From Candidatus Latescibacterota bacterium (GTDB taxonomy: Bacteria > Latescibacterota > UBA2968 > UBA8231): DNA of 61,232 nt. Within the stretch, counting starts at the first letter, position 1. Each line of letters opens with the position of its first letter. A program made the translations under genes and the position numbers. A model generated the notes under the pieces. That model was not told the DNA's origin. It ran no database searches and saw only the letters and a list, made by a program, of their open reading frames with translations. The stretch lies in the NCBI GenBank assembly GCA_029941315.1, contig JAPYQE010000007.1:1-61232 (forward strand), read 5' to 3'. Shown here piece by piece: positions 17,020 through 35,767 of the stretch.

Positions 17020-18894
17020 TCAGTGCACCACATTGACCACGCCTGTGCGGCATTCGGTCTCATTGTCGGCGGCGACCTGCACCTGATAGAGATATAGCCC
17101 CGGCCCGACCAAAGCGCCATAGTCGTCGCGCCCATCCCAGACTCGGGCAAAGCGCCCGCTCCGATCCTCACCGGCATATCCGCGGCGCACCAAGCGCCCG
17201 CCAAGGTCGTAGATCTCAAAGAACACAGGGGCCGGCTGCGTCAGTTTGAGCAGGCTATAGGCGACCTCGAACACGTCGTTTACTCCGTCGCCATTGGGCG
17301 TAAGCACCTGCCTCGCCGGCACCACATCGTTAAGTAAAGGCGCGTTCGGCGCAGAAAGGCGCACTGTCAGCCCCGAACTCGGCAGCTGCAGGTCCACATC
17401 CGCTTCCTGCGCATATTGGAATACCGTATCGGACTCGGCAGCTTCCGCCGTCGAACGCCGCTCCGCCGTGCGCACTTCAAAACGAGTGCCATCGACAAAG
17501 ACCTTAGCGCGAAAAAATACCTGCAAAAAGCTACCATCGGCAATCACCCGCTTCCACAAATTCACCTCGAAACCGCGCCCAGATTCCACCCGCACGGTAT
17601 GCAACACCAGTTCGTCGTCAACTTTGACGCTGTCGACACCGGCGACCTCGGCCAAGGTCAGCACTTCGACGAAGCGGTAACCAGTGTCCGAACGACCTTC
17701 GAGGCGGCGGGTCTGCATGCTCATCGCAAATTCTGTCTCGGCGCCCGCGTCAACGACATTCGGACTGATCTCGGCGCGCATCTGCCCCGAAGACGGTGGC
17801 GAGAAATATTCAAAAACCAGCTGTTCGAGCTTGACGCCGGGTTGCAGAAAACGCACCTGGAACTGCAAATAGCTGTTCGGGCTCGGCGAGCGCACCACGT
17901 TGCCGTCAACCGTCTCCCAACCACTCCAGTTGGGATTCGATTTGACCGGCCCCTGTGCGATGCCCGGAAAATCGTCGGCGTATTCCCATACCGCCCGGTT
18001 GACCTGTAACTCCTGCGGTCCTTGCGTGATAAAATAAATCAACGGATCCTCGTCAGGGCCGGTACGAGTCTGCAGCACGATCGGTAACTCTTCGATCGGC
18101 AAACCGCCCTCGTGGCGGACCCGCCCCCATACCGGCGTGCCGGTCCCAGCCAAAAGCGGCACAGAGCGATAGAAACCAGGCGGCGCGGTACCGTCGGTAT
18201 AGAGTTCCAGTTCCGCCAATTCCCAAGGCGCGTCGCCTATGGGTTGGAAACGCACGTAGCGAGCCTGGCGTTCACCGCTCACCTGCAGCACCCCCGGCCA
18301 TTCGACCACCGCACGAATATTGGGTCGGGTGATACCGAAAAATAGATAGCGCCGAAAGGAAACGTCGTTGGTGGTCAACAACCGCATCAGCGTCACCACC
18401 GGGCGCAGGCGGTCGCCCAAACCCAAATCGAAAGTCTGCGGAAAAGAGCCCACGTGTTCGGCGTCGAGCCGCGGCGAGAGTCGTGTGCGTTCGATACTAT
18501 AGGCCCCGCCGAGATCGATATAGATCGACGTCTGACGATCTAGCCCAAAGTCATCCGGATTAAAGGCCGTCGACAGGTCGCCGTCGCCGATAAACTTCAC
18601 CGCGGTGACTTCGTCGAGGAACACCGGCGTAAGTATCGCCTCGCCGAAGGGGTTGAAGCTTGGCTGTTGAGCCGAAAGCAGAATACTTCCGCCGCGCCCC
18701 GTGACATTCGCCATCAAGTTCTCCCTCGGCTCCACCCGCCAGGTCCAGACCGAGTCAGGCGACGAAATAACAAAGGCCAGCGAGTCCTGCACATCGATCC
18801 AGGAGAGCGCGTCGCGGCCCACCTTGAGTTCCAGTTGCGCCGCGGCCGGTGCGGTGCATAGCGCAAAAGCCAATAGGCAGAGGTGAATCCGCAT
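17020..18894 (-). CDS. A3: secreted protein with a discoidin-like motif and a C-terminal TPNGDGVND (T9SS type-B / FlgD-Ig-like) domain; function unknown
   Basis: Signal peptide MRIHLCLLAFALCTAPAAAQ. GDGDLSTAFNP..SIYIDLGGAYSIERTRLSPR. C-terminus LTPNGDGVNDVFEV..IYDLGGRLV..WDGRDDYGALVGPGLYLY. Paralog of A1 and A2. Confidence 0.85.
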   Translation of the reverse strand: MRIHLCLLAFALCTAPAAAQLELKVGRDALSWIDVQDSLAFVISSPDSVWTWRVEPRENLMANVTGRGGSILLSAQQPSFNPFGEAILTPVFLDEVTAVKFIGDGDLSTAFNPDDFGLDRQTSIYIDLGGAYSIERTRLSPRLDAEHVGSFPQTFDLGLGDRLRPVVTLMRLLTTNDVSFRRYLFFGITRPNIRAVVEWPGVLQVSGERQARYVRFQPIGDAPWELAELELYTDGTAPPGFYRSVPLLAGTGTPVWGRVRHEGGLPIEELPIVLQTRTGPDEDPLIYFITQGPQELQVNRAVWEYADDFPGIAQGPVKSNPNWSGWETVDGNVVRSPSPNSYLQFQVRFLQPGVKLEQLVFEYFSPPSSGQMRAEISPNVVDAGAETEFAMSMQTRRLEGRSDTGYRFVEVLTLAEVAGVDSVKVDDELVLHTVRVESGRGFEVNLWKRVIADGSFLQVFFRAKVFVDGTRFEVRTAERRSTAEAAESDTVFQYAQEADVDLQLPSSGLTVRLSAPNAPLLNDVVPARQVLTPNGDGVNDVFEVAYSLLKLTQPAPVFFEIYDLGGRLVRRGYAGEDRSGRFARVWDGRDDYGALVGPGLYLYQVQVAADNETECRTGVVNVVH

Positions 18895-20438
18895 CAGAAG
18901 GTGACCCTCGGAATGTTGCCCTTCGCTATTTCTTCGATCAACGCGAGACTATCCTCGCTGAGCGGGTTATTGCGCAGATCGACCGAGAGCAGCTTTTCTA
19001 GCGTCATAAGCACCGAAATATCCGCCACTTCGTTGCCGCGCAAACGCAGACGCCGCAACTCGGGCAGAGCCGCTAAGGGCAAGAGGTCTACCACGAAATT
19101 ATTCTCGAAAAACAAGGACCCCAGCAAAGCCTTACCGGCGAGTGGGCCGATATCGACAACCAGGTTCGCATTGAAGTCCAGGTTTTCTAGATTGCGTAGA
19201 CCCTGCAAGGGCGCGATATCCACGACCGAGTTTTGCGCGAACTCCAACCATTCCAACGCGCGCAAGCTCGACAGGGGCGAGAGATCGACGACCCGATTAA
19301 ATGAGAGGTGCAACATCGTGAGTCGGCGCAAACTGCGCAGTGGCGAAAGGTCATCGATCCAGTTGCTTTCCAGATAGAGTTTCTCCAGCCGACCTAGGCC
19401 TCGCAACGGCGAGATATCCTGGATCACATTGGATTCGAGGCGCAATTCGATCAGGTTCGTCAGACCGGCCAGCGACGAGACATCCACTATATCGTTGTTG
19501 TTAAGATTGAGTTTCTGTAGACTCGTCAGGCTCGCCAAGGAGGTGATATTTTCAAGACTTGCCGTCGTCAGGTCCAATGTATGCAGCTTCTGCAGACTCG
19601 CTAGCGGCAAGAGGCTTTGCAACTCGCCTTCGCGGGTCGAGCCGTTGAAGCGCAGCACTTCCAGATTAACCAACTGCTCGATGCCGTCCAGCGATTTTAC
19701 GGAGCTGTTCAGGCTCATGCTGGTGATCCCGCGCAGGTCCAAGACCGTCAAATTTTCGGTCCGCTTACGCGCCACCGAGCGCACTGAGCGTTCCAACTGC
19801 GCGTCCTGAAAAGTGATTGTCGGCTGGAAGAAGGTCACCAGCAATACCCGCTCGCGCAGCGTCTCCACCTGGTCCAAATCGAGCGGGTTGCCCGAAAGCT
19901 CGACGCTTTGCAAGCGCCTGAGTCGCAATAGCACCGCGATATCGCGAACTTGGTTATCGTCAAGGTTGAGCAGACTCAACAGCGTCAACCGCGCCAGTGG
20001 CTGCAAATCCGCGACCTGATTGCCGTCGAGGTTGAGCGAGTTCAACAACAATAAGTCCGCCAGCGGCGCGATATCCTCGACCGCGTTATTCGACAGATCG
20101 AGCACCTGCAGCCGCCGCAAACCCTCAAGCGGCGCGATATCCCCCACCGCGTTATCCCCCAATAACAGCATTTCCAAGCCGCGCAGTTGTTCGACCCCCT
20201 GCACATCCACAATATCATAACCGCCCGCGTCAAGCTTCTGTAACCCGGCCAACGCCGCCGCCGTCAATGCCCCCTCAGGCTGCGCCAACGCCTGCCGAAC
20301 TGCCCGCTCAAAACCCGCATCGGCAAAAGTATCGTGGGCAAAGACCACTTCGTTATCTGTGCCGACCGACTGTAGCGGCGGGCGTTCGTCGCCGCAGCCC
20401 AAACACCACAGCAATAGCAAGCACAGCAAATATTTCAT
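18894..20438 (-). CDS. leucine-rich-repeat (internalin-like 22-residue LRR) lipoprotein
   Basis: Lipobox LLLWCLGCG. Two blocks of LxxLxxLxLxxNxIxDIxPL repeats (for example LQVLDLSNNAVEDIAPLADL and LEKLYLESNWIDDLSPLRSL). Stop/start overlaps on both sides. Confidence 0.88.
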   Translation of the reverse strand: MKYLLCLLLLWCLGCGDERPPLQSVGTDNEVVFAHDTFADAGFERAVRQALAQPEGALTAAALAGLQKLDAGGYDIVDVQGVEQLRGLEMLLLGDNAVGDIAPLEGLRRLQVLDLSNNAVEDIAPLADLLLLNSLNLDGNQVADLQPLARLTLLSLLNLDDNQVRDIAVLLRLRRLQSVELSGNPLDLDQVETLRERVLLVTFFQPTITFQDAQLERSVRSVARKRTENLTVLDLRGITSMSLNSSVKSLDGIEQLVNLEVLRFNGSTREGELQSLLPLASLQKLHTLDLTTASLENITSLASLTSLQKLNLNNNDIVDVSSLAGLTNLIELRLESNVIQDISPLRGLGRLEKLYLESNWIDDLSPLRSLRRLTMLHLSFNRVVDLSPLSSLRALEWLEFAQNSVVDIAPLQGLRNLENLDFNANLVVDIGPLAGKALLGSLFFENNFVVDLLPLAALPELRRLRLRGNEVADISVLMTLEKLLSVDLRNNPLSEDSLALIEEIAKGNIPRVTF

Positions 20439-23161
20439 TGCTCGACCCCTGCGTAGACCGTGAGGAACCCCCGCGTCCGAGTGCGCGTTCCTTCGACTTC
20501 CTGATACCGCCGCGTAATGTCAAAGCCCAATACCGTCGTTAGTTTATAACCCTGGTAATCGGATATATTGGTCAGCTGGGCGACCGTCGTCGTCTCCCAA
20601 AAGCTGTCCTCCCCACCCGGCGGCGGCGGGTCGCGCAATTGGCGAAAATCGTGGTATTCGACCCCGGCTTCGAGATAACTACTGAGCATCACGGGAAAGC
20701 GCGCAACAACCAACAGAATCTGGCTAAGTTCTTTGCGTTCGGGCTGATTGAGTAATACCGGCGCCTCGCGGCGGAACTCGCTCTTCCACGCCGGGCTCAA
20801 ACTCAGCTTGCCCAACTGCAAGCGATACTCGGCCTTGTTAATCATGCCGAGAAAAGACCCCTCCTCGCGCTGGCCACGCAATTGTAATTCAATAAGATCG
20901 TCGCGCTGGTGGTAGAGCTGCCACTTGAGCATGTTGTTGAACTTGAACCCGGGCCAGCGGTCGAAGTCGAAACCCAGCCATGTCGTATTGAGCAACGTGT
21001 TCTGCGCCGGCAAGATATCTGGGGTCGGCACCAATTCGCCCTGCGAGTTGGGCCGTTGCGTCCACTGCACCAGATGGTCGAAGATATCGTCCTCAACGCT
21101 GCGCAGATCCTGGAAGACACGCGCCCGGCCCCAACCGGTAAAATAATGATCCCCCGCCACCATTAGATAATCGGCGTGCGCGCTGCGGCTGTCCGCACGC
21201 TGATCCATCCTCTGACGACCCGCCGCGACCCGCAGATCGGGGTGCAAAAAGACGCCGGCGTAAAGATTGTATCCCTTGCGATCGCGCTTGTAAGGATAGT
21301 CGGCCTCTTCGTCGTTTTCGAAACGGTCGATCCATCCATTGTGGTTCTGGTCGATGCCATAGAGGAACTCGGGCCGGTCGGTGTAATAGCGCAGAAAGGG
21401 CTCTTCGTAATCGGGCACTCGGTTGGGGCTTGAGTTGGTATCGTTTTGGTTGAAGTCGGAGATCAGGTCGTTGTTCTCGTCCCAGCCGGGGAAAATCGCG
21501 CGGTCCCTTGGCGAGCCTTGCCGAGCCCAGTCGGGGAAGCGGTCCTGGTCGTCGTTGTCGTCGACGAACTCGTAAAAACGCAACGGGCTGCCGTAGTCGA
21601 CAATGCCGTTGCGGTCGACTACTTGGAAACCAGTCTGGTAGTTGGGATCAAAATCAAAAGCTTCCAGCAGCGTGAAATAGGGGTAGTCGGTCTTCGACAC
21701 GTTCAGCATCCAGGCCTGCGACTCCTCGCTGGCCACATGGTGCTTTTCCAGGTTGGGGTTGGGATACTGTTTGTATTGCTGGTTAATGTCGACTTCGAGA
21801 TAGGCGTTAAACCCTTCAAGATCGCTCACCTCCACCGTGAAACCAGCGATCTGGTTGGCGGTGGGCAAACCATAATCGAGCGCCAATACGCGCTGATTCG
21901 ACGAATCCTTGACATTGCCCGGCGCCCTGGCCACCGGCACCGGCACGACCCGTTCCTGAAAATCGGTCTGCCGATCCGAGGCCATCTCAACTAGGTAGTC
22001 GTTGGCCACTACCAACTCAACTTGCACCCGCTCTATTTCGCTGGGGTCCGGCCCCGTATAGGAACGGTCCTGGAAATCATAGCGCAGATGGATCTCCTCG
22101 CGACCGTCCGCTGCCAAAAAACCGCGGCGCTGAAAACCGCCTTCAACCAGCGGCCGAAAACCGATCTCCGAGCCGCGTATACGCTTGCCTTCTAGGTCCC
22201 AGATTACAATATCCTGCGCGAAGAGTGCACCGCCGGCCTCGCCGTCTTCAGGGCTATCGTCCTTGATCACGACTTCGACGAAGCTGACATTGGTCAGATT
22301 CTGTATGCCGGTGAGATTGCCCTTGAGGATATTGCCATTAAAGAGCTCGGTTTGCGTTTGCGCGTGGTGGGCGTTGAGATAGGTGCCGCCGACCTTGACG
22401 AAGTCGCCAACCTGCACTTCTAAACGACTACCCACCAAACTCGTATTATTCGTCTTCTCCGAAGTTCCTGTCGAAGAGCCCGTCTCATCGACAAGGCCGT
22501 TGAGCCTGGACAACAATACCGTCAGCGCGTATTTATCGGCGAGAAAATCCCACTGGATGCCGTTGAAACGCGGCTTGGAAAAAGTCATCGGCGTCAGCGT
22601 CGTACGGATCTGACTGCCGATGGTGATCGCGTAATGATACTGGCCTTTGTGGTCGGAAGTGATGACCAATTGGTTAAACCACCCGGCAAAGCGCCCGTTC
22701 TGGGCCAGCGTCGAACCGAAGGGCTGCGGATTCTGTTGCCGCCAGTCGAAGATCAGCCAGCCGCGCGTCAGGTAGTTGCCGTATACATCATATATATAGC
22801 TGCCTTCGAGCGAGGTCGAGACATAGCGCTGGTAGAAGTTGCGCGCATAATTAGAGTACTCCCATTGTTTCCACTGGTATTCGGAGTAGAGCTCCTGCGG
22901 GATATACCACTTGCGCACCGCCGGGTCCAACGCGTCGAAGAGCACGCCGGGGCCACGCGGCTCAAAAGATACCTTGCCACCGCGTTTGACGGTACCTAAC
23001 CGGGAGCCATAGTCCTGAGCAGCGAGGAGTCCGGGTTGCAGGAGCAGATATAGGTTTAGCAGTAATAGGGTCGTGAGGAATGAAATATTCCGGATTATCC
23101 AGCCTCTGCTCTGCTCAAGGCCATGTTGTTTTATTTCGCTCAAAGCATACCTAAATCTCAA
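20435..23161 (-). CDS. B2: 908-aa secreted protein of unrecognised family (outer-membrane beta-barrel-like by inference)
   Basis: Hydrophobic signal segment ISFLTTLLLLNLYLLLQPGLLAAQ. Clear paralog of B1 (for example PDYEEPFLRYYTDRPEFLYGIDQNHNGWIDRFENDEEADYPYKRD). Beta-strand-like alternating pattern in the C-terminal third. Confidence 0.85.
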   Translation of the reverse strand: MRFRYALSEIKQHGLEQSRGWIIRNISFLTTLLLLNLYLLLQPGLLAAQDYGSRLGTVKRGGKVSFEPRGPGVLFDALDPAVRKWYIPQELYSEYQWKQWEYSNYARNFYQRYVSTSLEGSYIYDVYGNYLTRGWLIFDWRQQNPQPFGSTLAQNGRFAGWFNQLVITSDHKGQYHYAITIGSQIRTTLTPMTFSKPRFNGIQWDFLADKYALTVLLSRLNGLVDETGSSTGTSEKTNNTSLVGSRLEVQVGDFVKVGGTYLNAHHAQTQTELFNGNILKGNLTGIQNLTNVSFVEVVIKDDSPEDGEAGGALFAQDIVIWDLEGKRIRGSEIGFRPLVEGGFQRRGFLAADGREEIHLRYDFQDRSYTGPDPSEIERVQVELVVANDYLVEMASDRQTDFQERVVPVPVARAPGNVKDSSNQRVLALDYGLPTANQIAGFTVEVSDLEGFNAYLEVDINQQYKQYPNPNLEKHHVASEESQAWMLNVSKTDYPYFTLLEAFDFDPNYQTGFQVVDRNGIVDYGSPLRFYEFVDDNDDQDRFPDWARQGSPRDRAIFPGWDENNDLISDFNQNDTNSSPNRVPDYEEPFLRYYTDRPEFLYGIDQNHNGWIDRFENDEEADYPYKRDRKGYNLYAGVFLHPDLRVAAGRQRMDQRADSRSAHADYLMVAGDHYFTGWGRARVFQDLRSVEDDIFDHLVQWTQRPNSQGELVPTPDILPAQNTLLNTTWLGFDFDRWPGFKFNNMLKWQLYHQRDDLIELQLRGQREEGSFLGMINKAEYRLQLGKLSLSPAWKSEFRREAPVLLNQPERKELSQILLVVARFPVMLSSYLEAGVEYHDFRQLRDPPPPGGEDSFWETTTVAQLTNISDYQGYKLTTVLGFDITRRYQEVEGTRTRTRGFLTVYAGVEQ

Positions 23162-23219: not shown

Positions 23220-25115
23220 CTAGTACGCCACCGCCACCGTACCCGTATGCACCTCCTCAAACGCGTTCGCCTGCACCCGCAACACCCAAAAATAACTCCC
23301 CGGCAACACCATCTCGCCGCCCTCCAGCCGCCCATTCCACAACACCTCGACCGGCCCGATCCCCCGCTCCTCAGCCAATACCACGTGTACCAACCGGCCC
23401 GCCAGGTCGAAAAGCTCTAAACGCACCGGCGCCGACCGCGTCAGCTGTAATACGTTGAAGAACAGATCGAATGCGTCATTCACCCCATCGCCATTCGGCG
23501 TAAACACCGACGACTTGACCACAATCTCGCCGACCAGCTTGCCGATCTGCGGCTTGGGTATAGCTACCGATAAGTTCGACAACTCGGCAAAATCTCCGGG
23601 ACCGAAGTCGGTCGCCTCACCCGGTTCTAAACGCTGCGGTACCGCACCCGAACCACTGTGATAGGCCCGTCCCGAAAATGTCGTGCCGAAGCGGAAAATC
23701 GGCAGATCAAAAGTCAATTCAAGCACCGCCTCGTCGTGCCGGACTAGGGGGAAACTGATACCGAAGCCGTCGTCATGAATAAAGTCGACCGAGAAATCGA
23801 TCGGCTCCGCGTCGAGCACCACTTCCCGCACAGCCGAGATCGGCACGTTGGTGTCGATCTCAAGACGGTCGAAACCTCGAATCTCGCCCTCAGATCGCAG
23901 ACGCACCGCGTAGCGGAAAGTCGCCGCATCCTCTGCCTTGGCCAGCCGCGGAAAAACCTCGGCGCGCAGCGAATCGGCGATCGGCGGCTGCAAATAATCG
24001 AAGCGCAACTCGTCTACTTGCCGCGCCTCGAAGAGCCCACCTTCAAATTCGAAGCGAAACTGTATATAGCGGCGTGGCGTCGGCGCCCGTACCAACTCGT
24101 CCGAGTGCACTACGAACCACGGGCTCCAATAAATCGTATCATCGCGTACGCCGCCACGCTCGCCCGGCAACAGCGCATCGGTATAGCGCTCGCGCGAGAC
24201 TTCCACAATCTCGAAAAGCCCCTCACCGAGCGAAATCTTCTCCAAATAAACCAGCGGCGTCGGATCACTTCCGGTCCTGACCCTGACTTCCAATTGCGAA
24301 AAGTCCGGATGGCCGACGAGATCCTCGACCCAGTCGACAAAACCGATTGTGGCCCGGTCGCCGAGATCAATGGTATTAGATAAATACAGGCTCTCTTGCA
24401 GAAAACCAGTACCGTATACCTCGATCTCGTCGATCTCGAAGGGCACGTCGGCCAGCGACTTGATCTTGACGAAGCGCGCGTACTGGACCGGCACCTCCAC
24501 ATCGACCACCGGCTCCTCATTTTGTACATTGCGCTGGATCAATACATCGGGCTGACCGGATGCGAATTCGTTCAGCCACAGCTCGTAACCGCGCAAAAAA
24601 TCGTTATGAAAAGGGGTCGAGGGCATTTCTACTACCGTATTGCGCGGATAGAATAGCACTCTTTGCACACCTACTGGTACCATGAAATCGAGAATGACCC
24701 AAATACCGCGCGTCGCGACCCGCGGCTCGAAAACCGTCGGCTTGCGCTCGAAGGCCACCTCGTGGTCGCCGTTGACCGTGCCCTCGAGTTGCAATTCGTG
24801 GCCGCGCCCAGCATTCGGCGCCTTGATCGAACCAAAATCGAGGACCCGCGCAGCGATATTCTCACCTTCGTCAAAACGCAGCGGCCCGATCCACCCCGGC
24901 CGACCAGCAAAGTCAATGGTTACCCCCGGCGTATTCGTCAGCTCGACCTGGCCCAATGTCGAGTTGAGCACGATCTCCGGTTTGCCGCCGTCACCGCCGG
25001 CTTGCCAGGAAGAGGTGCCCCGGTCGCCGAGCACATAGGTCTCGGCCGGTTGCGCATACAACCCCGTCGCCCACAGCAATATCGCGGCCCACAGCCTATA
25101 TCTCATTGGCCTCAT
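23220..25115 (-). CDS. A2: secreted protein with a discoidin-like motif and a C-terminal TPNGDGVND domain; function unknown
   Basis: Start moved to ATG at 25115 (ATGA overlap with the B1 stop). Signal peptide MRPMRYRLWAAILLWATGLYAQ. VNGDHEVAFE..IWVILDFMVPVGVQRVLFYPR. C-terminus FTPNGDGVNDAFDL..LFDLAGRLV..WNGRLEGGEMVLPGSYFW. Confidence 0.85.
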   Translation of the reverse strand: MRPMRYRLWAAILLWATGLYAQPAETYVLGDRGTSSWQAGGDGGKPEIVLNSTLGQVELTNTPGVTIDFAGRPGWIGPLRFDEGENIAARVLDFGSIKAPNAGRGHELQLEGTVNGDHEVAFERKPTVFEPRVATRGIWVILDFMVPVGVQRVLFYPRNTVVEMPSTPFHNDFLRGYELWLNEFASGQPDVLIQRNVQNEEPVVDVEVPVQYARFVKIKSLADVPFEIDEIEVYGTGFLQESLYLSNTIDLGDRATIGFVDWVEDLVGHPDFSQLEVRVRTGSDPTPLVYLEKISLGEGLFEIVEVSRERYTDALLPGERGGVRDDTIYWSPWFVVHSDELVRAPTPRRYIQFRFEFEGGLFEARQVDELRFDYLQPPIADSLRAEVFPRLAKAEDAATFRYAVRLRSEGEIRGFDRLEIDTNVPISAVREVVLDAEPIDFSVDFIHDDGFGISFPLVRHDEAVLELTFDLPIFRFGTTFSGRAYHSGSGAVPQRLEPGEATDFGPGDFAELSNLSVAIPKPQIGKLVGEIVVKSSVFTPNGDGVNDAFDLFFNVLQLTRSAPVRLELFDLAGRLVHVVLAEERGIGPVEVLWNGRLEGGEMVLPGSYFWVLRVQANAFEEVHTGTVAVAY

Positions 25116-27856
25116 TGGCTCAATCCCGCGTAAAGCGTCATAAAAACCAAACTCGACTCCTGTGCAGGGCGCCCTTCGAAACGTCGCTGTTGGAACTGCA
25201 CGCCGGTCGTCGTCACCAACTGATACCCCTGGTAGGCCGTGCGGTTGAGCAATTGCGCGACAGCCGTCCAATTAAAAAAATCGGCATCTACCTCTTCCCG
25301 CATCCCGTCTAAGAGCCAGAGCTTGCCCGCCTCGACGCCCACCTGCAGTTCGGTATTGAAAAGCTGACGGCCATAACGCGGATAATAGCTGACACCCACC
25401 GATTCGGCGAAGAGCGGTTGCGTCCACATTAAAAAGAAAATCTCTTCCACGCTGGTAGACGCCGGCAGGCGCGTGCTGAAAGGCCGTTCCTTGCGAAATT
25501 CGCTTTTGAAGCGCGGCTCCAATACGCCCAACCCCACCGGAATGCTCCACTCCGCTTTATTAATCACACCGAGAAAACCGCTCAATTTGCGCCCTTCCCG
25601 CAACGACACCTCATCCTCCGGATCCTGTTGTTCTACGATATCCCATTTGACCCGGTGCAATAACCGCACCTGCGCCCCCAACTGTTGGTCCAGATCAATA
25701 TACAGCGCGTTTTTCCAGGCGTTCAGCCCCGGCAGAAAATCGACCCGATCGAGCATGCGGCCCGGCCCGCCGATGGGCTGAAACCACTGGCGTAGGTCGT
25801 CGGGAATATTGTCGCGGACCCGACCGCCAAAATCGAAAATCCTCAACCGGCTGCCGCCCTTAAAACGATGGCTCCAAGCCCCCAAACCATACCAGAACCG
25901 GGTCTCGCCGTCGCCGACCACCAATCGCATATTCTGGCGCCCTACGCTCAACTCGAGGTCGGGCAATACCTCGACCTTGAGATAGGCGTTATAACCGCGG
26001 TGATCGCGTTTGTAGGGATAGTCCGGCTCAAGGTCGTTTTCGAAACGGTCTATAATGTCATTGTGGTTCATATCGAGGCCGAAGAGGAACTCGGGCCGAT
26101 CCGAGCGATAGCGCAGGAAGGGCTCTTCGTAATCGGGGAAGACATTCTGGTTCTGGTTATTGTCGTTGATAAAGTCGCCGTTTTCGTCCAAGCCCGGCCA
26201 GGCGACCTCGCGCTGACTCGAAAGGATGCTCGCCGATGACACCGTCGCCGACTCGGTAATCCCGCCCCAGCGTACGAAAAATGGCCGTTCCCATTCGGTC
26301 AACCCGTTGAGGTCGTCGTCGTCATCGACAAATTCGTAGACCTGGGGTATCTGGCTCTTAAATTTGATCCGGCCCGTACGGTCGGTGAGCCAGTAGCGGG
26401 TGCTGTAGTCGTCCTCGATTGAAAAACCCTCGCCGAAGAACATCCAGGGACCGAAGCGATAGGAACCATTGAGATAACCGGCGTGCGCGTTTTCGGCGAT
26501 CTCGTGGTGCACTGAAATATTGGGGTTGGGATAGCGCGAATAGCGACGATTAAGCACCAATTCGCCCATTAGCGAAAGCCCTTTCCAATCGCTCAAATTC
26601 CAATCAACGCCGTACAGTTCGCTGGCCGTCGGCAAACCATAATCAAGTCGTAGAACCTGCGTGTTGCTATTGTCCTGCACATTGCCCGCGGCCCGCGCGA
26701 CCGGCAAAAAAACAACCTCGGCATTACGCCGTTGGCCGTCGGTCTGCAAATCCGTCGCTATTTCAACCCTGTAATCATTGGCCAGCGACAGCTCGACCTG
26801 CACGCTCTGCAAATCTTCCGTCTGCACATCCTCAAAGTCGAGGCTGCCTAGATCAAATTCCAATAGGATACTTTCTTCGTCACGAGCAAATAGCCGCCCG
26901 CCTTGCAATACCCCACCCTCGCGCAAGGGCAAAAAGTCGATGTCGCGCCCCCGCAATTGGCGGCCACTGGTATCCGTCATCACGATATCAAAACCCGCCA
27001 GCGCCGCCCCCACCCCACCACGGCCCGGCGAATCGTCCCTGATCCGGACCCACAACTTGTCCAATGGCTGGTTCTCCAACGAAGTCAAAATGCCGCGCAG
27101 CGGGTTACCTTCGCCGAACTCGACTTGGGTTAGCACATTGTGCGCGTTGACATAGGTCAGCCCGAAGCTTGCTCCCGGCCCCGCCTGAAATTCGAGGTGG
27201 CTACCCATGACCGTTGTCGAATTGGTTTGCGCCTCGGCGTCGGGGTTACTCGGTCGCGACAAGAGCAGACTGGCCTGATACTGCTCGGCCGCGTAATCCA
27301 GGCGCACGCCATTGAAGCGCGGCTTATTGAAGGTCAGCGGGGTAAAACGGGTGAAGATCTCGTCGCCGATCATCAGCCGGTACGAGGCCCCGCCGCGCTG
27401 GTCCGAAGCGATGACCAGACGGTTAAAAAAATCGCGGTAGGCCGGACGCTGATTCGCCATCAGGTCCATCGAAGAAAGACCACCGCCGCGCTTGTCGATA
27501 AAGCTGCCCCTGGAGCCGACCTGCTCCTGGCTCCAGTTGTAAACCAACCAGCCCCGGCCCAAAGACTTGCCAAAGTTGTCAAAGCTCTCGTCGCCTTCGA
27601 GGATCAGACTGATATAACGCCGATAGGAGTCGCGGGCGAAATTGCTGCCGCGCGCGTACCAGGGCGACATATAGGTCTCAGGCTGATAGCGCGGCTCGTA
27701 CCATTTGTGTATCGCCGGCGAGACATAGGACATCTCGAAGCTCTCGGTATGCGCACCGCGCTGCGCGACGCCCCAGTGCAACGGATCAGATACTTGCGCG
27801 CCGGCCAGAGCCACCCACAACAGGCATAAACTTATGATCGTCGTATGGCGCATCAA
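25112..27856 (-). CDS. B1: 914-aa secreted protein of unrecognised family (outer-membrane beta-barrel-like by inference)
   Basis: Signal peptide MMRHTTIISLCLLWVALAGAQ. Paralog of B2 along its full length. Asp/Asn-rich block GLDENGDFINDNNQNQN..DMNHNDIIDRFENDLEPDYPYKRD. ATGA overlaps at both ends. Confidence 0.85.
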   Translation of the reverse strand: MMRHTTIISLCLLWVALAGAQVSDPLHWGVAQRGAHTESFEMSYVSPAIHKWYEPRYQPETYMSPWYARGSNFARDSYRRYISLILEGDESFDNFGKSLGRGWLVYNWSQEQVGSRGSFIDKRGGGLSSMDLMANQRPAYRDFFNRLVIASDQRGGASYRLMIGDEIFTRFTPLTFNKPRFNGVRLDYAAEQYQASLLLSRPSNPDAEAQTNSTTVMGSHLEFQAGPGASFGLTYVNAHNVLTQVEFGEGNPLRGILTSLENQPLDKLWVRIRDDSPGRGGVGAALAGFDIVMTDTSGRQLRGRDIDFLPLREGGVLQGGRLFARDEESILLEFDLGSLDFEDVQTEDLQSVQVELSLANDYRVEIATDLQTDGQRRNAEVVFLPVARAAGNVQDNSNTQVLRLDYGLPTASELYGVDWNLSDWKGLSLMGELVLNRRYSRYPNPNISVHHEIAENAHAGYLNGSYRFGPWMFFGEGFSIEDDYSTRYWLTDRTGRIKFKSQIPQVYEFVDDDDDLNGLTEWERPFFVRWGGITESATVSSASILSSQREVAWPGLDENGDFINDNNQNQNVFPDYEEPFLRYRSDRPEFLFGLDMNHNDIIDRFENDLEPDYPYKRDHRGYNAYLKVEVLPDLELSVGRQNMRLVVGDGETRFWYGLGAWSHRFKGGSRLRIFDFGGRVRDNIPDDLRQWFQPIGGPGRMLDRVDFLPGLNAWKNALYIDLDQQLGAQVRLLHRVKWDIVEQQDPEDEVSLREGRKLSGFLGVINKAEWSIPVGLGVLEPRFKSEFRKERPFSTRLPASTSVEEIFFLMWTQPLFAESVGVSYYPRYGRQLFNTELQVGVEAGKLWLLDGMREEVDADFFNWTAVAQLLNRTAYQGYQLVTTTGVQFQQRRFEGRPAQESSLVFMTLYAGLSQ

Positions 27857-30378
27857 TAGACCACGTGCACCAGTCTGGAAGCGTAGACTCCAGCCACATC
27901 ACTATCGGCAGCGAAACCAACGCGCGCCATGTAAATGCCCGGCGGCACAATCTCGCCGACCTCGTCGCGCCCGTCCCATGCGACTCGACGCTCGCCACTA
28001 GGGTGCGCGGCATCGATCGACAAATCGCGCAACTGCCGCCCCGCCAGATCGTAAATTTCCACCCGCAGTTGCTTCTCGCCTTCAAGGTGAAAAATCGACA
28101 AGGTTATGTCCGTAATATCATTGACGCCATCGCCATTGGGTGTAAACGCGCGCGGCACCACCTGCACATTTTCCAATAGCCGCGTCCGCTCCAGGTCCGA
28201 CACTACTACCAGCGACTGACTCGATACCAGGGCGCTGGCATCACCATCGCTGACCACCTGCACTCGTCCCGGCCTGCTCGCCCGTTCCAACTCGGCGGTA
28301 AAGGTCGTGCTCTGTAAAAATACCTTGGTGCGGAATTTGATCTCGTAGATCGGATTGCCACGCAGCACCGGTGCGGGAAAAAACAGTTCGACCTCGCCCT
28401 CCGCCCCCGGTTCCAATAGTAATTCGCCCGGCCACAAATCCTGGCCAGAGCCGATGCGCAACGCCGTATCCCCACCCGATCGCACCGAGAGCAACTCAAT
28501 CGGCGCCGCCGAAGAAGAGCGCAGGCGCAAACGGTCGAAGCCCGGATTGCCCGCCGCGAATTCGGGCTGCAAATAAAGCGTAAAGTCCTGCTCAACCCCC
28601 GGTTCGATCTGCCATACCGGCCAAATCTCGCCGACCACCTTGTCGACCAAAGGCGGCTCGAAACGCAAGCGTAGATCGCGGATCTTGGCCGCCCTGAGCG
28701 GCTCGCGCGACAAAAGCCGCACCTGTACTTGCACAAAGGCGCGTGGACTCGGCGATTTGAAGGCGAGGCCCGAGGCCTCGTAGACCTCACTCCAACTGCT
28801 CCAATGCGGGCCAGCAACTTTTTCGATCACGACAGCCGGACGCCTATTTTCTGGGAGCAGGTCCCACAGGCTCTTGGCGATCTCACGACCGGTCACCGCA
28901 AAATAATGCGGTATCTCGATAATCTCTTCGCCGCTGCGGGTGCGAACCTCGACCTGGGTGCCTGGCGGCTCTTCCCCCTCCCACTCCACCACGGAAAACA
29001 ACCGCGGTCTATCCAGCGGGATAAAGGGCGAGGTCATTTCCACCTCGGAGACAAAACCCTCGCCATAGGCCTGGATCTCGCTGATAAAACCGTCGACCGA
29101 TTCGTTGGGATTAAATTCGAGGTGGCGCATTTCGATAAAGCGCACTTCCTGCAGCGGAAAGGTCTCTTCGAGATGCTGGTGGCCGCTGAGGTTGCGTTTT
29201 TCGTCGAAACTGTTCCAGATCCGTTCCCCATTAGGACTCAACGCCCCATTCGAAACCCGCAACTGATAAGCCAGCGGCGGCATCTCATTGGCCGGCGCGA
29301 GCAGTTTGATGCGGTCGAGCCAGTATTTGGCGCCCAAGTCGATCTTCAGTTGCCGCTCGTCGGTCACCGGATCGTAGATCGGCACGTCAAAGCTCGAAGA
29401 ATAGAGTCCGTCGGAAAAAATCTTGCGGAAGAGAAATTCAAAACCGCCTTCGTCGGCTCCGCGTTCGACCTCGCTCTGGGTCAGCTTCACCACATTCTGG
29501 CCAAGAGCAAAAACCTCGACCTCGGCCAAGCGGGGACGCTCGTGACGATAATAGCGCACCGGTCCGTGCTCGTCCTCCGGCAAGTCGAAATAATCACGCT
29601 CGGAAATAAGGATCTCGCGCCCGCCCACCGTCACACGAAAATAATCGACGGCGCCCCGGTCGTCTTCGGCCAAGATCTCATAGGTCTCGGCATTCACTTC
29701 CTGCGCTCTGGGCCCGTCGGTATCGAGCACGTCGAGCCGCAAAAACTGAATAATCTCGCCTTCGATGCCGTCGGTGACCTGGCGGTTGGGTTTGATGTCG
29801 AAAATATATTCGCGTTGGTTTTTATTGGGTTTGGTCTCCAAACCAATGCGAAAGAAGCGCCGGCGCTGATCGCGCCCCTGCCCGAAACGCAGCCCATCCG
29901 AGGCCATCAAACGAAACTTCAAAAAGGGATCGCCCTGTCCCTCATCGACAAAGCGCAGCACTACTCTGCGGGCGATTACCGCCCGCCCCAAATCAATCTC
30001 CAGAAACCACTGGTCCACCGGCGAGCTACGCAAAGGCTCCCAATAGGTGCTGGGATTGCGATCCAAAATAGCCGCCGCCTGGTCCCGGCTGGTGCCTACC
30101 TCACTAATACCGCCCTGCAGAGTGTCTTGCGACACGAAGGGGTTTACGTAGATAAAGTCGACCGCGTTTTGCGCCACCTCGATATCGCTGCGCAGAAAAC
30201 GCGGTTCGACGGTGCCGTCTTCGCGTACGATCTGCACCCCGGTGGGCGCATCCCAGGCCTGCCAGTGCACCGGTTCGTTGATGCGCACTTGGTTAAAAAG
30301 TAGGCGGTAGCCTTCGCTTTCCTGGGCGAAAAGCGGATGGGCCAGAAAGAACAGTAGAATAGGTAGTATTATGCGCAC
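27853..30378 (-). CDS. A1: 841-aa secreted protein with discoidin-like motifs and a C-terminal TPNGDGVND domain; function unknown
   Basis: GTG start. Signal peptide MRIILPILLFFLAHPLFAQ. LDRNPSTYWEP..WFLEIDLGRAVIARRVVLRF and KIDLGAKYWLDRIKLLAP. C-terminus FTPNGDGVNDITDI..IYDLAGRQL..WDGRDEVGEIVPPGIYM. Confidence 0.85.
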   Translation of the reverse strand: MRIILPILLFFLAHPLFAQESEGYRLLFNQVRINEPVHWQAWDAPTGVQIVREDGTVEPRFLRSDIEVAQNAVDFIYVNPFVSQDTLQGGISEVGTSRDQAAAILDRNPSTYWEPLRSSPVDQWFLEIDLGRAVIARRVVLRFVDEGQGDPFLKFRLMASDGLRFGQGRDQRRRFFRIGLETKPNKNQREYIFDIKPNRQVTDGIEGEIIQFLRLDVLDTDGPRAQEVNAETYEILAEDDRGAVDYFRVTVGGREILISERDYFDLPEDEHGPVRYYRHERPRLAEVEVFALGQNVVKLTQSEVERGADEGGFEFLFRKIFSDGLYSSSFDVPIYDPVTDERQLKIDLGAKYWLDRIKLLAPANEMPPLAYQLRVSNGALSPNGERIWNSFDEKRNLSGHQHLEETFPLQEVRFIEMRHLEFNPNESVDGFISEIQAYGEGFVSEVEMTSPFIPLDRPRLFSVVEWEGEEPPGTQVEVRTRSGEEIIEIPHYFAVTGREIAKSLWDLLPENRRPAVVIEKVAGPHWSSWSEVYEASGLAFKSPSPRAFVQVQVRLLSREPLRAAKIRDLRLRFEPPLVDKVVGEIWPVWQIEPGVEQDFTLYLQPEFAAGNPGFDRLRLRSSSAAPIELLSVRSGGDTALRIGSGQDLWPGELLLEPGAEGEVELFFPAPVLRGNPIYEIKFRTKVFLQSTTFTAELERASRPGRVQVVSDGDASALVSSQSLVVVSDLERTRLLENVQVVPRAFTPNGDGVNDITDITLSIFHLEGEKQLRVEIYDLAGRQLRDLSIDAAHPSGERRVAWDGRDEVGEIVPPGIYMARVGFAADSDVAGVYASRLVHVVY

Positions 30379-30674: not shown

Positions 30675-31883
30675 TCATCTGGTCGTTTCTTCCCGCAAGA
30701 TATCGAGATAGCGCTCACCATAACCCTCGTATTCTAGTCCCTCGCTATACGCTCCGTCGCGACCATCGAGGCTCGTTGGCGCCGCCTCGACCACCGGTTC
30801 GATCTGGGTGTCCTCGTGCCACTCGTTCCACGAAGTAACCAGCAGCATATGTCCGGTAGCCGGTTCCGTGTAGGACGCCGCCTGCTGCAACATAGCGCGA
30901 AAGAGGCTGCCGGGTTCACTCGTCTTGGTCAGCTTGCGAGACACCGCCGGGTGCCCATCGCGCACACCTTTGTCGTTGAAACCCGGTGTGGCGGCGGGAA
31001 CAAACGCCGCACCCGCTGCATTCGCCAACTTCTGCCATTTGCTCTGCGCCGCATAATAAGCATCAACTTTCTGCTGCCCGGCGTAGCCCTGCGCGCCCAT
31101 ACTACCATATACATCGTAATTCGTCACGCCGTCGAGCAGTCCGAGGGCGGACGAATTTGTCGGTTGTCCGAATACCTGGTCGCCGACGATATAAATGTCG
31201 TGGCCCGCATCCGTTGCCGCATTGCGCATTCGCGCTACCACCTCGTCGAGCACACCATTGCGCGACAGCACGCGCGTTAGATAGACAAATAACACGGGGC
31301 GACCGTCGATGCGCAGATAGTTTGCATGATCGAAATAATTGGCCGCCATATGGGCGATATCCGCGGAGACATTGGACATATCCTCGAACTCGGGAATACG
31401 CCCGGAGGTCTCGTAGAATAACGCCACTTGCATATCCCCCAGTTCCTCATGCGGCAAAATGCGCTGCAATAACGTAGTATCCTCGCGGCGACCCGGCCCC
31501 CACCAACTAGCGACCCACAGCGACACATTGGCGGCGCGACTCCACTGCAAATGCTGGGCGATGACCTCTGGGGCGCGGTCGTCATACTCGCCAAGGCTGG
31601 GTGGCTGCGGCGGTTGCAAATGCTCGCGCATATAGCGACCACCATGAAAATCACCTGCATACCACGGGTAATAATAAACGCCGACCGTATAGGCCGAGTC
31701 CAAAGCTGGGTCTTCGGAATCGATCATCTCCTGCCCTTTTGTAGAATTTGTCGTCCCTTGCCCTGTGCAGGCACTCGCCAAGGCAAGAAAAAAGCTACAG
31801 GCGCAAACGAGCAACAAGGCCCGTTGAGATGGGTCAGATATGCTATACTGAGACGTTTTTGCAAGCTTTGCCGAGTTGTTCAA
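30675..31883 (-). CDS. GH99-like glycoside hydrolase lipoprotein
   Basis: Lipobox FLALASAC. GVYYYPWY..LGEYDDRAPEVIAQHLQWSRAANVSLWVASWWGPG matches the GH99-type N-terminal pattern as I recall it. Not verified by search. Confidence 0.5.
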   Translation of the reverse strand: MNNSAKLAKTSQYSISDPSQRALLLVCACSFFLALASACTGQGTTNSTKGQEMIDSEDPALDSAYTVGVYYYPWYAGDFHGGRYMREHLQPPQPPSLGEYDDRAPEVIAQHLQWSRAANVSLWVASWWGPGRREDTTLLQRILPHEELGDMQVALFYETSGRIPEFEDMSNVSADIAHMAANYFDHANYLRIDGRPVLFVYLTRVLSRNGVLDEVVARMRNAATDAGHDIYIVGDQVFGQPTNSSALGLLDGVTNYDVYGSMGAQGYAGQQKVDAYYAAQSKWQKLANAAGAAFVPAATPGFNDKGVRDGHPAVSRKLTKTSEPGSLFRAMLQQAASYTEPATGHMLLVTSWNEWHEDTQIEPVVEAAPTSLDGRDGAYSEGLEYEGYGERYLDILREETTR

Positions 31884-31992
31884 TTTAGTCCTTTTAGTCC
31901 TTTATGGCGCTGTAGTAGCACTCTTTTTTTATGTTGAGACCAGTCTGGCCCAAAATGCAACACCTCATTTACCCTCTCAATAAAACTCGCTT

Positions 31993-33423
31993 TCAAATGC
32001 CGCCAATGCGGCGCGGACCCCGATCCATGGCTATCACAGAGGTGTCAAAACTGCGTTTGATAAGATCGGCGCGGATATTGGCAAAGGCCGGATTCTCCCA
32101 CTGATTGTCAAATTCGTCGGGATCCTCCTGCAAGTCGTAGAGTTCGCCGTAGTCGCGACCGTGGTAGACGACGAGTTTGTAGCGCCGATCGCGGTACATC
32201 GTGGCGAGCGTGCCATCGCGGGCCTTTAGTGCATCGTAATACTCACAGCGCACGAAGTCCCGGTGATGCTCCGGCGAAACCTCCCCGGTCAGTATCGGTG
32301 CCAGTGATTTTCCGGTCATATTCTCGGGGATCTCCTGCCCACACAACTGCAACAGCGTCGGCGCCTTGTCGCTCAACTCCACCAACGCATCCGAGCGCTG
32401 TCCCGCCTCAATATGACCGGGCCAGGAGAAAATTAGCGGCACTCGCACAAGCCCTTCGTAGAAACGACAGCCCTTCTGTAGCAAACCGTGATCACCCAGC
32501 GTCTCGCCGTGGTCAGAGGTAAAGACGACGATTGTATTGTCGCGTTGCCCGCTCTCTTCCAAAGCCTGTAGGATTCGCCCCAACTGGTCGTCGACCAGTT
32601 TGATCATCGCATAGTAGACCGATTTTAGCAGGCGGGCGTCACTCGGTTTCCAGGGCGCGTCTTTCTCCGCGGAGTAATAGTCATTCTTCCAGGTCAACTC
32701 CTCCGGGTAGCACCCCTTTGATTGAAAGTCGGCAAAGGACAGCCGCTCCTGTTCGGCAAGGTCAGACTCGCGAAATAATGGTCCTGGCATGTCGGCCGGG
32801 TCAAACAGATCGCGGTACTCGCGCGGTGCATTGAACGGCGGGTGCGGATCGTAGATATTGACACTGGCCAGCCATGGGGTATCGCGCTTTTGTGCCATAA
32901 ATTCGATGGTCTTGTCGGCACACCACGTCGTCTGGTGATACTCGGTGGGCACACCGTCCGGGTCGGGCACTAGGTCGCCGAGGATCTTGCCCTTTTCACG
33001 CACCCAGTCAGCATAACCATGGCCCACGGGCCAGTCGTCGCGCGGCGCGTGGCTATACTCCCAATAGCGGTAGCCGTCGGCGGCGCGTGGCTCGATGCCC
33101 TGCGAAGCGCTGGCCAGATGCAACTTGCCGATCAAACCGCAGTCGTAACCCGCATCGGCGAATGTGCGCGTCACCAGCTTTGGTCGCTGCGGAAAGTATT
33201 CGAGACCATTGCCGTTAACATGCACCGCGCTGGCATACATACCGGTGAGGAAACTGGCGCGGCTCGGCGTGCAAATCGGGCTCTGACAATAGGCGTGGGT
33301 GAAGGTCGTACCCGAGGCGACCAAGCTATCGATATTGGGTGTCGACACATGTTCGTTTCCCAGAGCGGCGATCGTATCGTAGCGCTGCTGGTCGGTGCAA
33401 ATCCAGAGAATATTTGGCGTCAT
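31993..33423 (-). CDS. arylsulfatase-family sulfatase, no signal peptide
   Basis: ILWICTDQQRYD, CTPSRASFLTG (CxPxR formylglycine motif), GKLH and TSDHGE. Confidence 0.9.
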   Translation of the reverse strand: MTPNILWICTDQQRYDTIAALGNEHVSTPNIDSLVASGTTFTHAYCQSPICTPSRASFLTGMYASAVHVNGNGLEYFPQRPKLVTRTFADAGYDCGLIGKLHLASASQGIEPRAADGYRYWEYSHAPRDDWPVGHGYADWVREKGKILGDLVPDPDGVPTEYHQTTWCADKTIEFMAQKRDTPWLASVNIYDPHPPFNAPREYRDLFDPADMPGPLFRESDLAEQERLSFADFQSKGCYPEELTWKNDYYSAEKDAPWKPSDARLLKSVYYAMIKLVDDQLGRILQALEESGQRDNTIVVFTSDHGETLGDHGLLQKGCRFYEGLVRVPLIFSWPGHIEAGQRSDALVELSDKAPTLLQLCGQEIPENMTGKSLAPILTGEVSPEHHRDFVRCEYYDALKARDGTLATMYRDRRYKLVVYHGRDYGELYDLQEDPDEFDNQWENPAFANIRADLIKRSFDTSVIAMDRGPRRIGGI

Positions 33424-33496
33424 ATATAGGGCCTCGTTATCATCGATGAAATAAATTGCGTGGGGTCCAATAGGGAAGGAATGTTCTCCGTTCGAC

Positions 33497-34504
33497 CTAT
33501 GGATAAACCTTCAATGCCTCGTCGTTGAAGTCAATGATCTCATCTTGCAAACCGTCGACCACCTTGTTGCACCAATCCGCATCGCTGAGCAACGGGCGAC
33601 CGATGGCGACTAGGTCGAATTCGCCGCGGTCAAAACGCCGCATCAATTCTTGTTTGCTTTGCGGTCCGTCGCCAAAGAACTCACCGGTCACCAGCCCCAC
33701 ATTGCCCACGGTGATCGTCGGCAGATCGGCGATCTTTTTGCTCCAGCCGGCTAGATTGAGATCGGAACCATCAAACTCGGGCAGCCAGAAGCGCCGCGTG
33801 CTGGCGTGAAGAAAGTCGATGCCGGCGTCTTTTAAGGCGAGCAGCGTCTTTTCCAGTTCTTGTGGTGTCGCGAACTGCTTGGCCTCGAAGTCGCGCACGG
33901 TCCACTGAGAAAAGCGAATGCCCAGCGGGTAAACAGGGCCGACTTGGCGGCGAATTTCGCGCACGAGATCGCAGACGAACGCGAGTTGCCCGGCGCGCAA
34001 GAAACTGTCGATCAAATAGCCGTGCGCGCCGTGCAGTTCGATGCCATCAAAGCCGATTTTCTGCGCGGATACCGCACCGGCAACAAAGGCATTGAATAGC
34101 TCCTGCAGGGCTTTACCCTCAGCTTGTACGACAACCTCCCGACCTTCTTCGACCACCGACCGGGCCGCGATCCCGGGTCGGTTTATCGGGCCTTGGTGCC
34201 ATAGCTGCACAAAAGTCTTGCTACCGGTTGGCTCAATTTTGGCGAGCACGGCCTGCCAGGCTGCTGCGGTATCTTCGGCAATGCGGGGGATCTGGTCCGA
34301 GTTGGCCGCCAAGCGGTGTTCGACCACCGTGCCCTCCGTTATAAGTAGGCCAACACCTCCGGCGGCCCGGCGGTGATAGTATTCCGCGACAATGCTCGTC
34401 GGCACGCCGCCAGGCGATTGTTTACGCGTCATCGGTGCCATGACAAAGCGATTGCGCAAGTCTAGGTCTTTGATTTTGTAGGGTTGAGATAGGGCTGTTA
34501 TCAT
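33497..34504 (-). CDS. NADH:flavin oxidoreductase (Old Yellow Enzyme family)
   Basis: Start moved to ATG at 34504. RFVMAPMTR and IELHGAHGYLIDSFL. Confidence 0.85.
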   Translation of the reverse strand: MITALSQPYKIKDLDLRNRFVMAPMTRKQSPGGVPTSIVAEYYHRRAAGGVGLLITEGTVVEHRLAANSDQIPRIAEDTAAAWQAVLAKIEPTGSKTFVQLWHQGPINRPGIAARSVVEEGREVVVQAEGKALQELFNAFVAGAVSAQKIGFDGIELHGAHGYLIDSFLRAGQLAFVCDLVREIRRQVGPVYPLGIRFSQWTVRDFEAKQFATPQELEKTLLALKDAGIDFLHASTRRFWLPEFDGSDLNLAGWSKKIADLPTITVGNVGLVTGEFFGDGPQSKQELMRRFDRGEFDLVAIGRPLLSDADWCNKVVDGLQDEIIDFNDEALKVYP

Positions 34505-34614
34505 ATGGTCTTTTTTATCATTCGGTTCCGACACTCCATAACAAAGCATATTTGATCAATCAAAATGCGCATACCTACGTGGCTAATGCGCACATGATCT
34601 GCGCGCTATTTTTC

Positions 34615-35715: not shown

Positions 35716-35752
35716 TTAAAATATCCCTTAGAAAAAAGTAAGATTTACCTTT

Positions 35753-35767
35753 GCAGATGGCATCTGC
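35753..35767. promoter_or_regulatory. perfect 7-1-7 palindrome GCAGATG-G-CATCTGC (candidate operator) upstream of the OYE gene
   Basis: Read directly from the sequence. It lies about 40 nt upstream of the start codon at 35715 and is followed by a second CATCTG. Confidence 0.35.

Follow-up and report, generated by a model that had tools for sequence, protein, structure and literature searches.

Two paralogous predicted outer-membrane barrels of very large size, encoded next to lectin-like surface proteins in a Latescibacterota contig

A stretch of 61,232 nucleotides from Candidatus Latescibacterota bacterium (assembly GCA_029941315.1, contig JAPYQE010000007.1, positions 1 to 61,232 of the forward strand), hereafter the window, was analyzed around two genes that encode B1 and B2, paralogous proteins of around 910 amino acids. 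These proteins are predicted to represent, in two copies, an undescribed family of outer-membrane barrels of very large size present in Latescibacterota-type metagenome-assembled genomes (MAGs), and each of them is encoded downstream of an A-type gene, whose product is a lectin-like protein with a C-terminal domain (CTD) resembling those of secreted surface proteins. The two genes belong to a series of six consecutive open reading frames (ORFs) on the minus strand, named A1, B1, A2, B2, the leucine-rich repeat (LRR) protein gene and A3, which are listed here from the upstream to the downstream end:

27853-30378, minus strand: A1, a secreted protein of 841 amino acids that carries an F5/8 type C (discoidin) domain and, at its C-terminus, a CHU_C/FlgD_ig-like one; upstream partner of B1.
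25112-27856, minus strand: B1, 914 amino acids (913 from the ATG at 27853), a predicted outer-membrane beta-barrel of around 26 strands.
23220-25115, minus strand: A2, a lectin-like surface protein of 631 amino acids with discoidin/CBM32-like (carbohydrate-binding module 32), Ig-like and CHU_C C-terminal domains; upstream partner of B2.
20435-23161, minus strand: B2, the paralogous predicted barrel, 908 amino acids from the TTG at 23161, or 902 in public gene calls, which start at the second in-frame TTG (23143).
18894-20438, minus strand: LRR protein, 514 amino acids with internalin-like repeats (LRR_4 E = 7.7e-48) and a signal peptide with a Cys near the cleavage site.
17020-18894, minus strand: A3, the third A-type protein, 624 amino acids, with a CHU_C/FlgD_ig C-terminal domain.

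The ORFs of B1 and B2 were confirmed at the coordinates and on the strand given in the original prediction, which had also proposed that each of them is translationally coupled to the A gene that precedes it. This is the case for B1, whose ATG overlaps the stop codon of A1 (TGATG), but not for B2, which is separated from the stop codon of A2 by a spacer of 58 or 76 nt, depending on whether the TTG at 23161 or that at 23143 is used. The other junctions of the operon are overlaps as well, ATGA between the stop of B1 and the start of A2 and between the stop of B2 and the start of the LRR gene, and TGATG between the stop of the LRR gene and A3. In the public gene calls for identical MAG contigs (GCA_029935955.1 and two others) B1 starts at the ATG at 27853 and has 913 amino acids, and the exact B1 protein was found in NCBI MAG assemblies. 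A scan for promoters and terminators between positions 16400 and 31000 returned sites that were no commoner than in shuffled sequence.

B1 and B2 align from end to end by BLASTP, with 38% identity and 53% positives over around 909 aligned positions (538 bits, E = 0), so that the full-length paralogy originally claimed is borne out, and the four peptides quoted in its favor are all present in the two proteins. As read by eye, B1 starts with a signal-peptide-like sequence, MMRHTTIISLCLLWVALAGAQ, followed by VSD, and B2 with a hydrophobic stretch ending in LLAAQ, both of them Sec-signal-like, as expected from the signal peptides that had been assigned to the pair. Neither B1 nor B2 matched any Pfam or NCBIfam model at E <= 0.1, and comparisons with the sequences of the PDB, using single sequences and profiles, produced only noise (oxalate decarboxylase, Dam1 and MPEG1, E > 0.05). 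The absence of plug, TonB-box or POTRA features, also part of the original prediction, was confirmed in such a way that no match to Plug, TonB_dep_Rec, POTRA, usher, OstA/LptD or SLH families was detected at that threshold in B1, B2 or 50 divergent homologs, and neither the Plug domain (PF07715), nor the TonB_dep_Rec barrel, nor a TonB box was found in B1 and B2. The B proteins gave no Pfam or NCBIfam match to PorP_SprF either. Membership in the TonB-dependent transporters, the ushers, LptD, Omp85/POTRA proteins or PorP/SprF was rejected on these grounds.

The family is large. A word-indexed search recovered 310 homologous proteins, and in a profile search against 1.84 billion cluster representatives 909 clusters were obtained (E <= 1e-3), the majority of them 850-1050 amino acids long. 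The homologs that carry a name in their source are all annotated as "hypothetical protein", and the source titles correspond to Latescibacterota, to "Gemmatimonadetes"-labelled and Handelsmanbacteria genomes, and to one Planctomycetota-labelled MAG. No account of the family was found in the Pfam and NCBIfam collections, among PDB entries or in the literature open to searching, and a literature search linking Latescibacteria with type IX secretion (the T9SS), with CHU_C or with outer-membrane barrels gave nothing relevant.

A structural model of B1 was built with AlphaFold2 from an alignment of 53 sequences. The model (mean predicted local distance difference test score, pLDDT, of 72.6; predicted template modelling score, pTM, of 0.71) is nearly all beta, without long helices, and DSSP assigned to it around 26 long antiparallel strands of 12-19 residues each. 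The following elements were distinguished in B1:

27794-27856, minus strand: putative signal peptide, residues 1-21, ending in ALAGAQ, as read from the sequence; residues 2-19 are modelled as a helix.
26636-27130, minus strand: insert 1, residues 243-407, a beta-sandwich-like domain between barrel strands, with pLDDT around 85-94 and short strands at 267-368.
26003-26416, minus strand: insert 2, residues 481-618, rich in Asp, Asn and Glu.
26153-26188, minus strand: first Ca-binding-like loop, DENGDFINDNNQ, residues 557-568, with D557, D561 and D565 invariant or nearly invariant.
26039-26074, minus strand: EF-hand-like loop of 12 residues, DMNHNDIIDRFE, residues 595-606, with D595, N599 and D603 invariant.
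25115-25162, minus strand: last strand with a variant beta-signal, QESSLVFMTLYAGLSQ, which aligns with the VVAGF, VVAGY or VVAGW type of terminus of distant homologs.

When this model was compared with the PDB by Foldseek, the top 50 matches listed were all outer-membrane barrels. The best was SlpA of D. radiodurans (8ae1_A, 30 strands, E 3.9e-10, TM-score around 0.27), followed by MtrB (6r2q_B, 26 strands, E 2e-9) and, further down, by the FimD usher and LptD (both around 1e-6), with OccK porins and TonB-dependent transporters giving weaker matches. The amphipathicity averaged over the predicted strands, 1.60 against 1.17 +/- 0.17 for shuffled sequences (z around 2.5), adds modest support. 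The barrel assignment, which had been put forward from the alternation of hydrophobic and polar residues, is therefore supported by an all-beta model of around 26 strands and by the barrels among the top 50 matches listed; the fold predicted is that of a barrel and not that of a soluble protein, and no clear homology to an outer-membrane family of known function was detected, the one resemblance being a local one to the SlpA barrel, below the threshold. We consider B very probably an outer-membrane barrel of a new family. Three features of the model count against the overall reading favored below: the TM-scores of the Foldseek matches are low (0.2-0.3), as expected because the barrels compared differ in strand number; the acidic insert 2 is poorly modelled; and so are the N-terminal residues 21-145, which are conserved in sequence and may be in contact with a partner or in the lumen.

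The C-terminus also bears on the barrel assignment. The termini of B1 and B2, YAGLSQ and YAGVEQ, were as originally described, and the aromatic residue at the C-terminal end is truly missing in both. In the alignment, however, F, Y or W is the last residue in 18 of the 52 divergent members (FFVEVVAGF, IIAGW and LLGY, for example), preceded by alternating hydrophobic residues, whereas the clade of B1 and B2 shows AG[L/V] at the aligned position followed by one or two additional residues. By its sequence pattern the terminus of the distant members is a canonical beta-signal of the barrel assembly machinery (BAM), of which B1 and B2 appear to carry a derived variant. As a derived state, the missing aromatic residue strengthens rather than weakens the reading of B as an outer-membrane protein.

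The turns of two residues in the model (876-877, 775-776, 632-633, 469-470, 425-426, 227-228 and 191-192, counted back from the C-terminus) are all located on one side. In outer-membrane proteins the side of the short turns is usually the periplasmic one, so that the two large inserts of B1 are placed on the extracellular side, as judged from the DSSP string. Insert 1 contains conserved DDSP and ANDYR motifs, with conserved columns at D274-P277 and D361/Y362. Insert 2, where D, N and E make up 30% of the residues versus 18% in the whole protein, contains the majority of the positions that do not vary in the family, and with its EF-hand-like loops it is the best-conserved feature of the B proteins. 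The first loop sits around 38 residues upstream of the EF-hand-like one, and the counterparts in B2 are DENNDLISDFNQ and DQNHNGWIDRFE, the latter matching the 12-residue EF-hand-like loop of B1. Among 52 divergent members, which share 22-40% identity, 50 retain the pattern D.[DN].[DN]...[DNST]..[ED] (DxNxNGxIDxxE), and the Pfam models for EF-hand, dockerin and TSP3 gave no match to these loops. The motif makes a strong prediction that the acidic insert would bind Ca2+.

In addition to being the best structural match, the SlpA class provides the sole Pfam family with recurrent weak matches among the divergent members. The SlpA_C model (PF21620) gave sub-threshold matches in 11 of the 52, the best with E = 2e-7 and 30.2 bits versus a cut-off of 35, covering positions around 232-330 of the 656 of the profile and falling always on the same four strands, at B1 residues around 400-490; B1 and B2 themselves gave no SlpA_C match. 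The barrel core may thus be a distant relative of the SlpA class, without B being a member of it. The two share the structure of very large single-chain barrels with inserts carrying metal-binding motifs (PDB 8ae1, 7zgx and 8agd for SlpA of Deinococcus-Thermus), and in D. radiodurans the inserts of SlpA are stabilized by metal sites and the protein is thought to anchor the surface layer (S-layer) (PMC9388160). On this basis B could be a structural scaffold of the SlpA type, organizing the envelope or anchoring a surface layer made of A proteins instead of handling these one by one. Nevertheless, B has neither an SLH domain nor a coiled coil, by which the SlpA/OmpM connectors are defined (PMC9388160); it has around 26 strands instead of 28-30 and scores below the Pfam cut-off, and profile searches of the PDB sequences with the B family did not recover SlpA. 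Moreover, a single abundant structural protein would not be expected to occur as 10 or more divergent paralogs in a genome, all of them with a lectin-like A partner of their own. We regard the scaffold role as having only a slim chance.

The distribution of the family and its association with A-type genes were studied in a scan with one genome per species, in which at least 154 B-encoding stretches were found and 80 loci were kept for the context counts. Latescibacterota-type MAGs account for nearly all of these loci, and a genome carries many copies; 8 of the 80 are on the 7.3-Mb chromosome OZ244561.1 alone, which has at least 10 B genes. A B gene was considered evaluable when enough upstream sequence was available, and paired when an A-type CTD gene ended 400 nt or less upstream on the same strand. 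Such a gene was found upstream of 85 of the 100 evaluable B genes, and 8 of the 15 exceptions occupy the second place in a B-B tandem that has an A gene ahead of it.

The A1-B1-A2-B2 core is conserved in loci L001-L017, with the LRR and A3 genes located after B2 or before A1, and other orders such as A-A-A-B and A-B-B appear in more distant ones. Tandem barrels (A-B-B) were found in L048, L056, L063, L066, L069, L072, L074 and L080, and three A genes ahead of a single B in L053, L057 and L076, among others, implying that the A:B stoichiometry differs between modules. Furthermore, B1-like barrels come after A1-like genes and B2-like barrels after A2-like genes, which supports that the upstream A gene encodes a conserved partner. 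The LRR gene is kept after B2 in L001-L009 and in L021.

Regarding the A proteins, A1 matches the Pfam model F5_F8_type_C with 29.9 bits (cut-off 28.2), A2 and A3 pass the cut-off of CHU_C (PF13585, 27 bits), the Pfam model of the type B CTD of the T9SS, with 35.1 and 33.8 bits, and A3 also matches FlgD_ig with 32.8 bits (cut-off 27). Most homologs of A2 carry a precomputed PF13585 assignment, and some of them are named by NCBI as 'gliding motility-associated C-terminal domain-containing protein'. In its AlphaFold2 model (pLDDT 86.6) A2 consists of beta-sandwich domains arranged in a row, for which the best Foldseek matches were the discoidin/CBM32 module of galactose oxidase, chitosan-binding CBM32 modules (target TM 0.75), fucose-binding modules of F-type lectins, and PorU. 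Together with the F5/8 type C domain of A1, these structural matches support the view of the A proteins as lectin-like surface proteins that are secreted and made up of several domains.

A protein with a different CTD is encoded further upstream:

36367-38622, minus strand: xylanase-like enzyme of glycoside hydrolase (GH) family 10 (Glyco_hydro_10 E = 5e-44; FlgD_ig 36.6 bits).

Its C-terminus (NYPNPFNPST...) is a type A CTD of the T9SS, with 24.1 bits for TIGR04183 (Por_Secre_tail, cut-off 23), and no B gene adjoins it. As the A proteins have type-B-like CTDs and are accompanied by B genes, both types of CTD are present in this organism, and B goes with the type-B-like cargo. In Bacteroidota, type A cargo uses PorV, whereas each type B CTD cargo depends on a cognate PorP/SprF-like barrel, to which it binds, by which it is anchored and which is usually encoded by a neighboring gene (PMC9143113, PMC12618676).

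The GH10 gene is part of a run of genes located directly upstream of the operon on the same strand (30675-40723, minus strand), which encodes a GH99-like protein, a sulfatase, two Old-Yellow-Enzyme-like ORFs, GH10 and GH92. More sulfatases are encoded at 52039-53448 and 58810-60189. The operon was considered as part of a conserved cluster of carbohydrate-active enzymes (CAZymes), resembling a polysaccharide utilization locus, and this was rejected because the CAZyme neighbors are not kept at other loci (L082, L083).

These neighbors bear on a role for B as a TonB-independent channel for the uptake of glycans or other nutrients, analogous to SusC/SusD, in which A would capture the polysaccharide and B would let the oligosaccharides pass. 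The pair has in common with SusC/SusD the outer-membrane barrel, the glycan-binding surface protein (CBM32-like and F-lectin-like domains are found in the A proteins), the many paralogous pairs per genome, reminiscent of the expansion of polysaccharide utilization loci, and the presence in the window of CAZyme genes; in addition, relatives of the SlpA barrel class, OmpM among them, can serve as uptake channels (PMC10628300). Conversely, B has no Plug, TonB box or TonB_dep_Rec barrel, its partner is a CTD protein and not a SusD lipoprotein, the CTD points to display more than to a lipoprotein lid, and the linkage to CAZymes is not conserved, with no inner-membrane transporter or regulator linked to the operon. 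Moreover, the most conserved residues of B are in the acidic loops and not in a channel constriction. We thus find the uptake function quite improbable.

The size of the barrel and its gene order allow for another role, in which B would be a dedicated translocation pore and A would cross the outer membrane through its lumen, independently of the T9SS, as in an usher-like or two-partner-like pair. Known barrels of 24-30 strands generally have a partner or a plug inside them (LptD-LptE, MtrB-MtrA, FimD), and one of around 26 strands would have the width needed for a folded domain to go through it or be held in it. The structural neighbors of B are of this kind: MtrB (26 strands, sheath for MtrA), LptD (26, plugged by LptE) and the FimD usher (24) agree with B in size class and in fold (Foldseek E 2e-9 to 1e-6), enclose partner proteins and are each encoded beside one. 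The strict A-then-B order with overlapping genes, and the one barrel per cargo in many paralogous pairs per genome, agree with such a pore, and so does the fact that no T9SS core gene turned up in the window or in the neighborhoods inspected, where no search aimed at them was made. In contrast, neither an energy source nor a periplasmic docking domain is apparent in B (no POTRA, no usher N- or C-terminal domain, no TonB box), which also lacks the OstA/LptD_N jellyroll and the usher plug, and its partners have no heme motifs. The enzyme with a type A CTD and no B nearby implies a general CTD-dependent route, and A3, like several A genes of other loci, lacks a barrel of its own. A translocation pore is in our opinion unlikely, even if more probable than an uptake channel. 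The reading of A and B as a porin-cytochrome pair of the MtrAB type was rejected, as no CxxCH was found in any protein of the operon.

The reading that we favor, to which we would give somewhat less than an even chance, is that B acts as the cognate outer-membrane partner of the upstream A protein, in a role like that of PorP/SprF. According to this mechanism, A and B would be exported by Sec, and B would be inserted by BAM as a barrel of around 26 strands bearing a beta-sandwich insert and an acidic module with EF-hand-like Ca2+ loops. Once in place, B would receive its A protein and hold it at the cell surface (A1 with B1, A2 with B2), either as receptor and anchor or as shuttle, in a contact possibly mediated by the Ca2+-stabilized extracellular insert, and the outcome would be a surface-displayed lectin that attaches to glycans or particles. 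A3 and the LRR protein could perhaps be additional cargo or accessories.

The likeness to PorP/SprF lies in the gene arrangement. In both cases the barrel gene adjoins that of a surface protein with a CHU_C/type-B-like CTD (here the barrel gene is downstream of it), several cognate cargo-barrel pairs exist per genome (in Bacteroidota with type B cargo such as SprB or PG1035), and type A CTD cargo of the same organism is not paired with a barrel. Differences concern the two large inserts of B, with their Ca-binding-like loops, and the phylum, Latescibacterota, in which the dependence on a T9SS is presumed by analogy. On the other side of the balance, B has no detectable sequence similarity to PorP/SprF and has around 26 strands and 910 amino acids, compared with the 14-stranded, FadL-like barrels of around 300-350 amino acids; its size class fits a translocon or a sheath as well as an anchor. 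The presence of the T9SS core (SprA/Sov, GldKLMN/PorKLMN) in these genomes is deduced only from the CTD cargo and from membership in the FCB superphylum. Moreover, A1, with 25.9 bits, stays just below the Pfam cut-off for CHU_C, the scores of A1, A2 and A3 with TIGR04131 (17-23 bits) are below its cut-off of 35, and one distant member of the family, P0170 (L081, 10001-12970), has no upstream A gene.

Downstream of this same P0170, which gives the best SlpA_C match, come a gene encoding a DUF6785/DUF6784 protein, another encoding a protein with FlgD_ig/Por_Secre_tail and, after these, integrase and transposase genes. As for the LRR protein, it contains nine LRR_4 stretches, and the end of its signal peptide (LLLWCLGCGDE) suggests a possible lipoprotein. 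Within A1, an antisense ORF of 524 amino acids (28729-30303, plus strand) is most likely spurious, a product of the GC-rich opposite strand. Elsewhere in the window, and seemingly unrelated to the A and B genes, a small outer-membrane protein of PF13557 (MetA-pathway phenol degradation-like) is encoded at 11640-12623 (minus strand), adjoining a tetratricopeptide repeat protein (9539-11632), and a sigma factor of the extracytoplasmic function type is encoded at 8606-9181.

The Latescibacterota, which are widespread and uncultured, degrade organic matter of algal and particulate kinds. For bacteria of this kind, a protein family with no Pfam or NCBIfam model, with at least 10 copies per genome and with a lectin-like CTD partner is a strong candidate for the outer-membrane part of a substrate-attachment machinery. 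If the pairing works like that of type B CTD cargo with PorP/SprF, the principle of a cargo-specific T9SS partner would extend beyond Bacteroidota, with a very different barrel. In a more specific version, which we hold as doubtful but ahead of the translocation pore, A and B would form a display or secretion device specific to Latescibacterota, in which a Ca2+-dependent barrel of around 26 strands took over, or evolved independently, the role of PorP/SprF for type B CTD cargo. Such a device might even work as a translocon that is sufficient by itself for lectin-like adhesins, and the cargo would dock on the EF-hand/dockerin-like insert.

Set against the known systems, both the fold class of giant outer-membrane barrels and the logic of a CTD cargo with an adjacent cognate barrel had already been described. 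What appears to be new is their combination in a single module, that is, this barrel family with its conserved Ca-loop insert, its expansion in Latescibacterota, and its pairing with lectin-like proteins that carry type-B-like CTDs. If the predictions hold, a class of barrels of around 26 strands bearing Ca2+ loops would join the short list of giant single-chain barrels.

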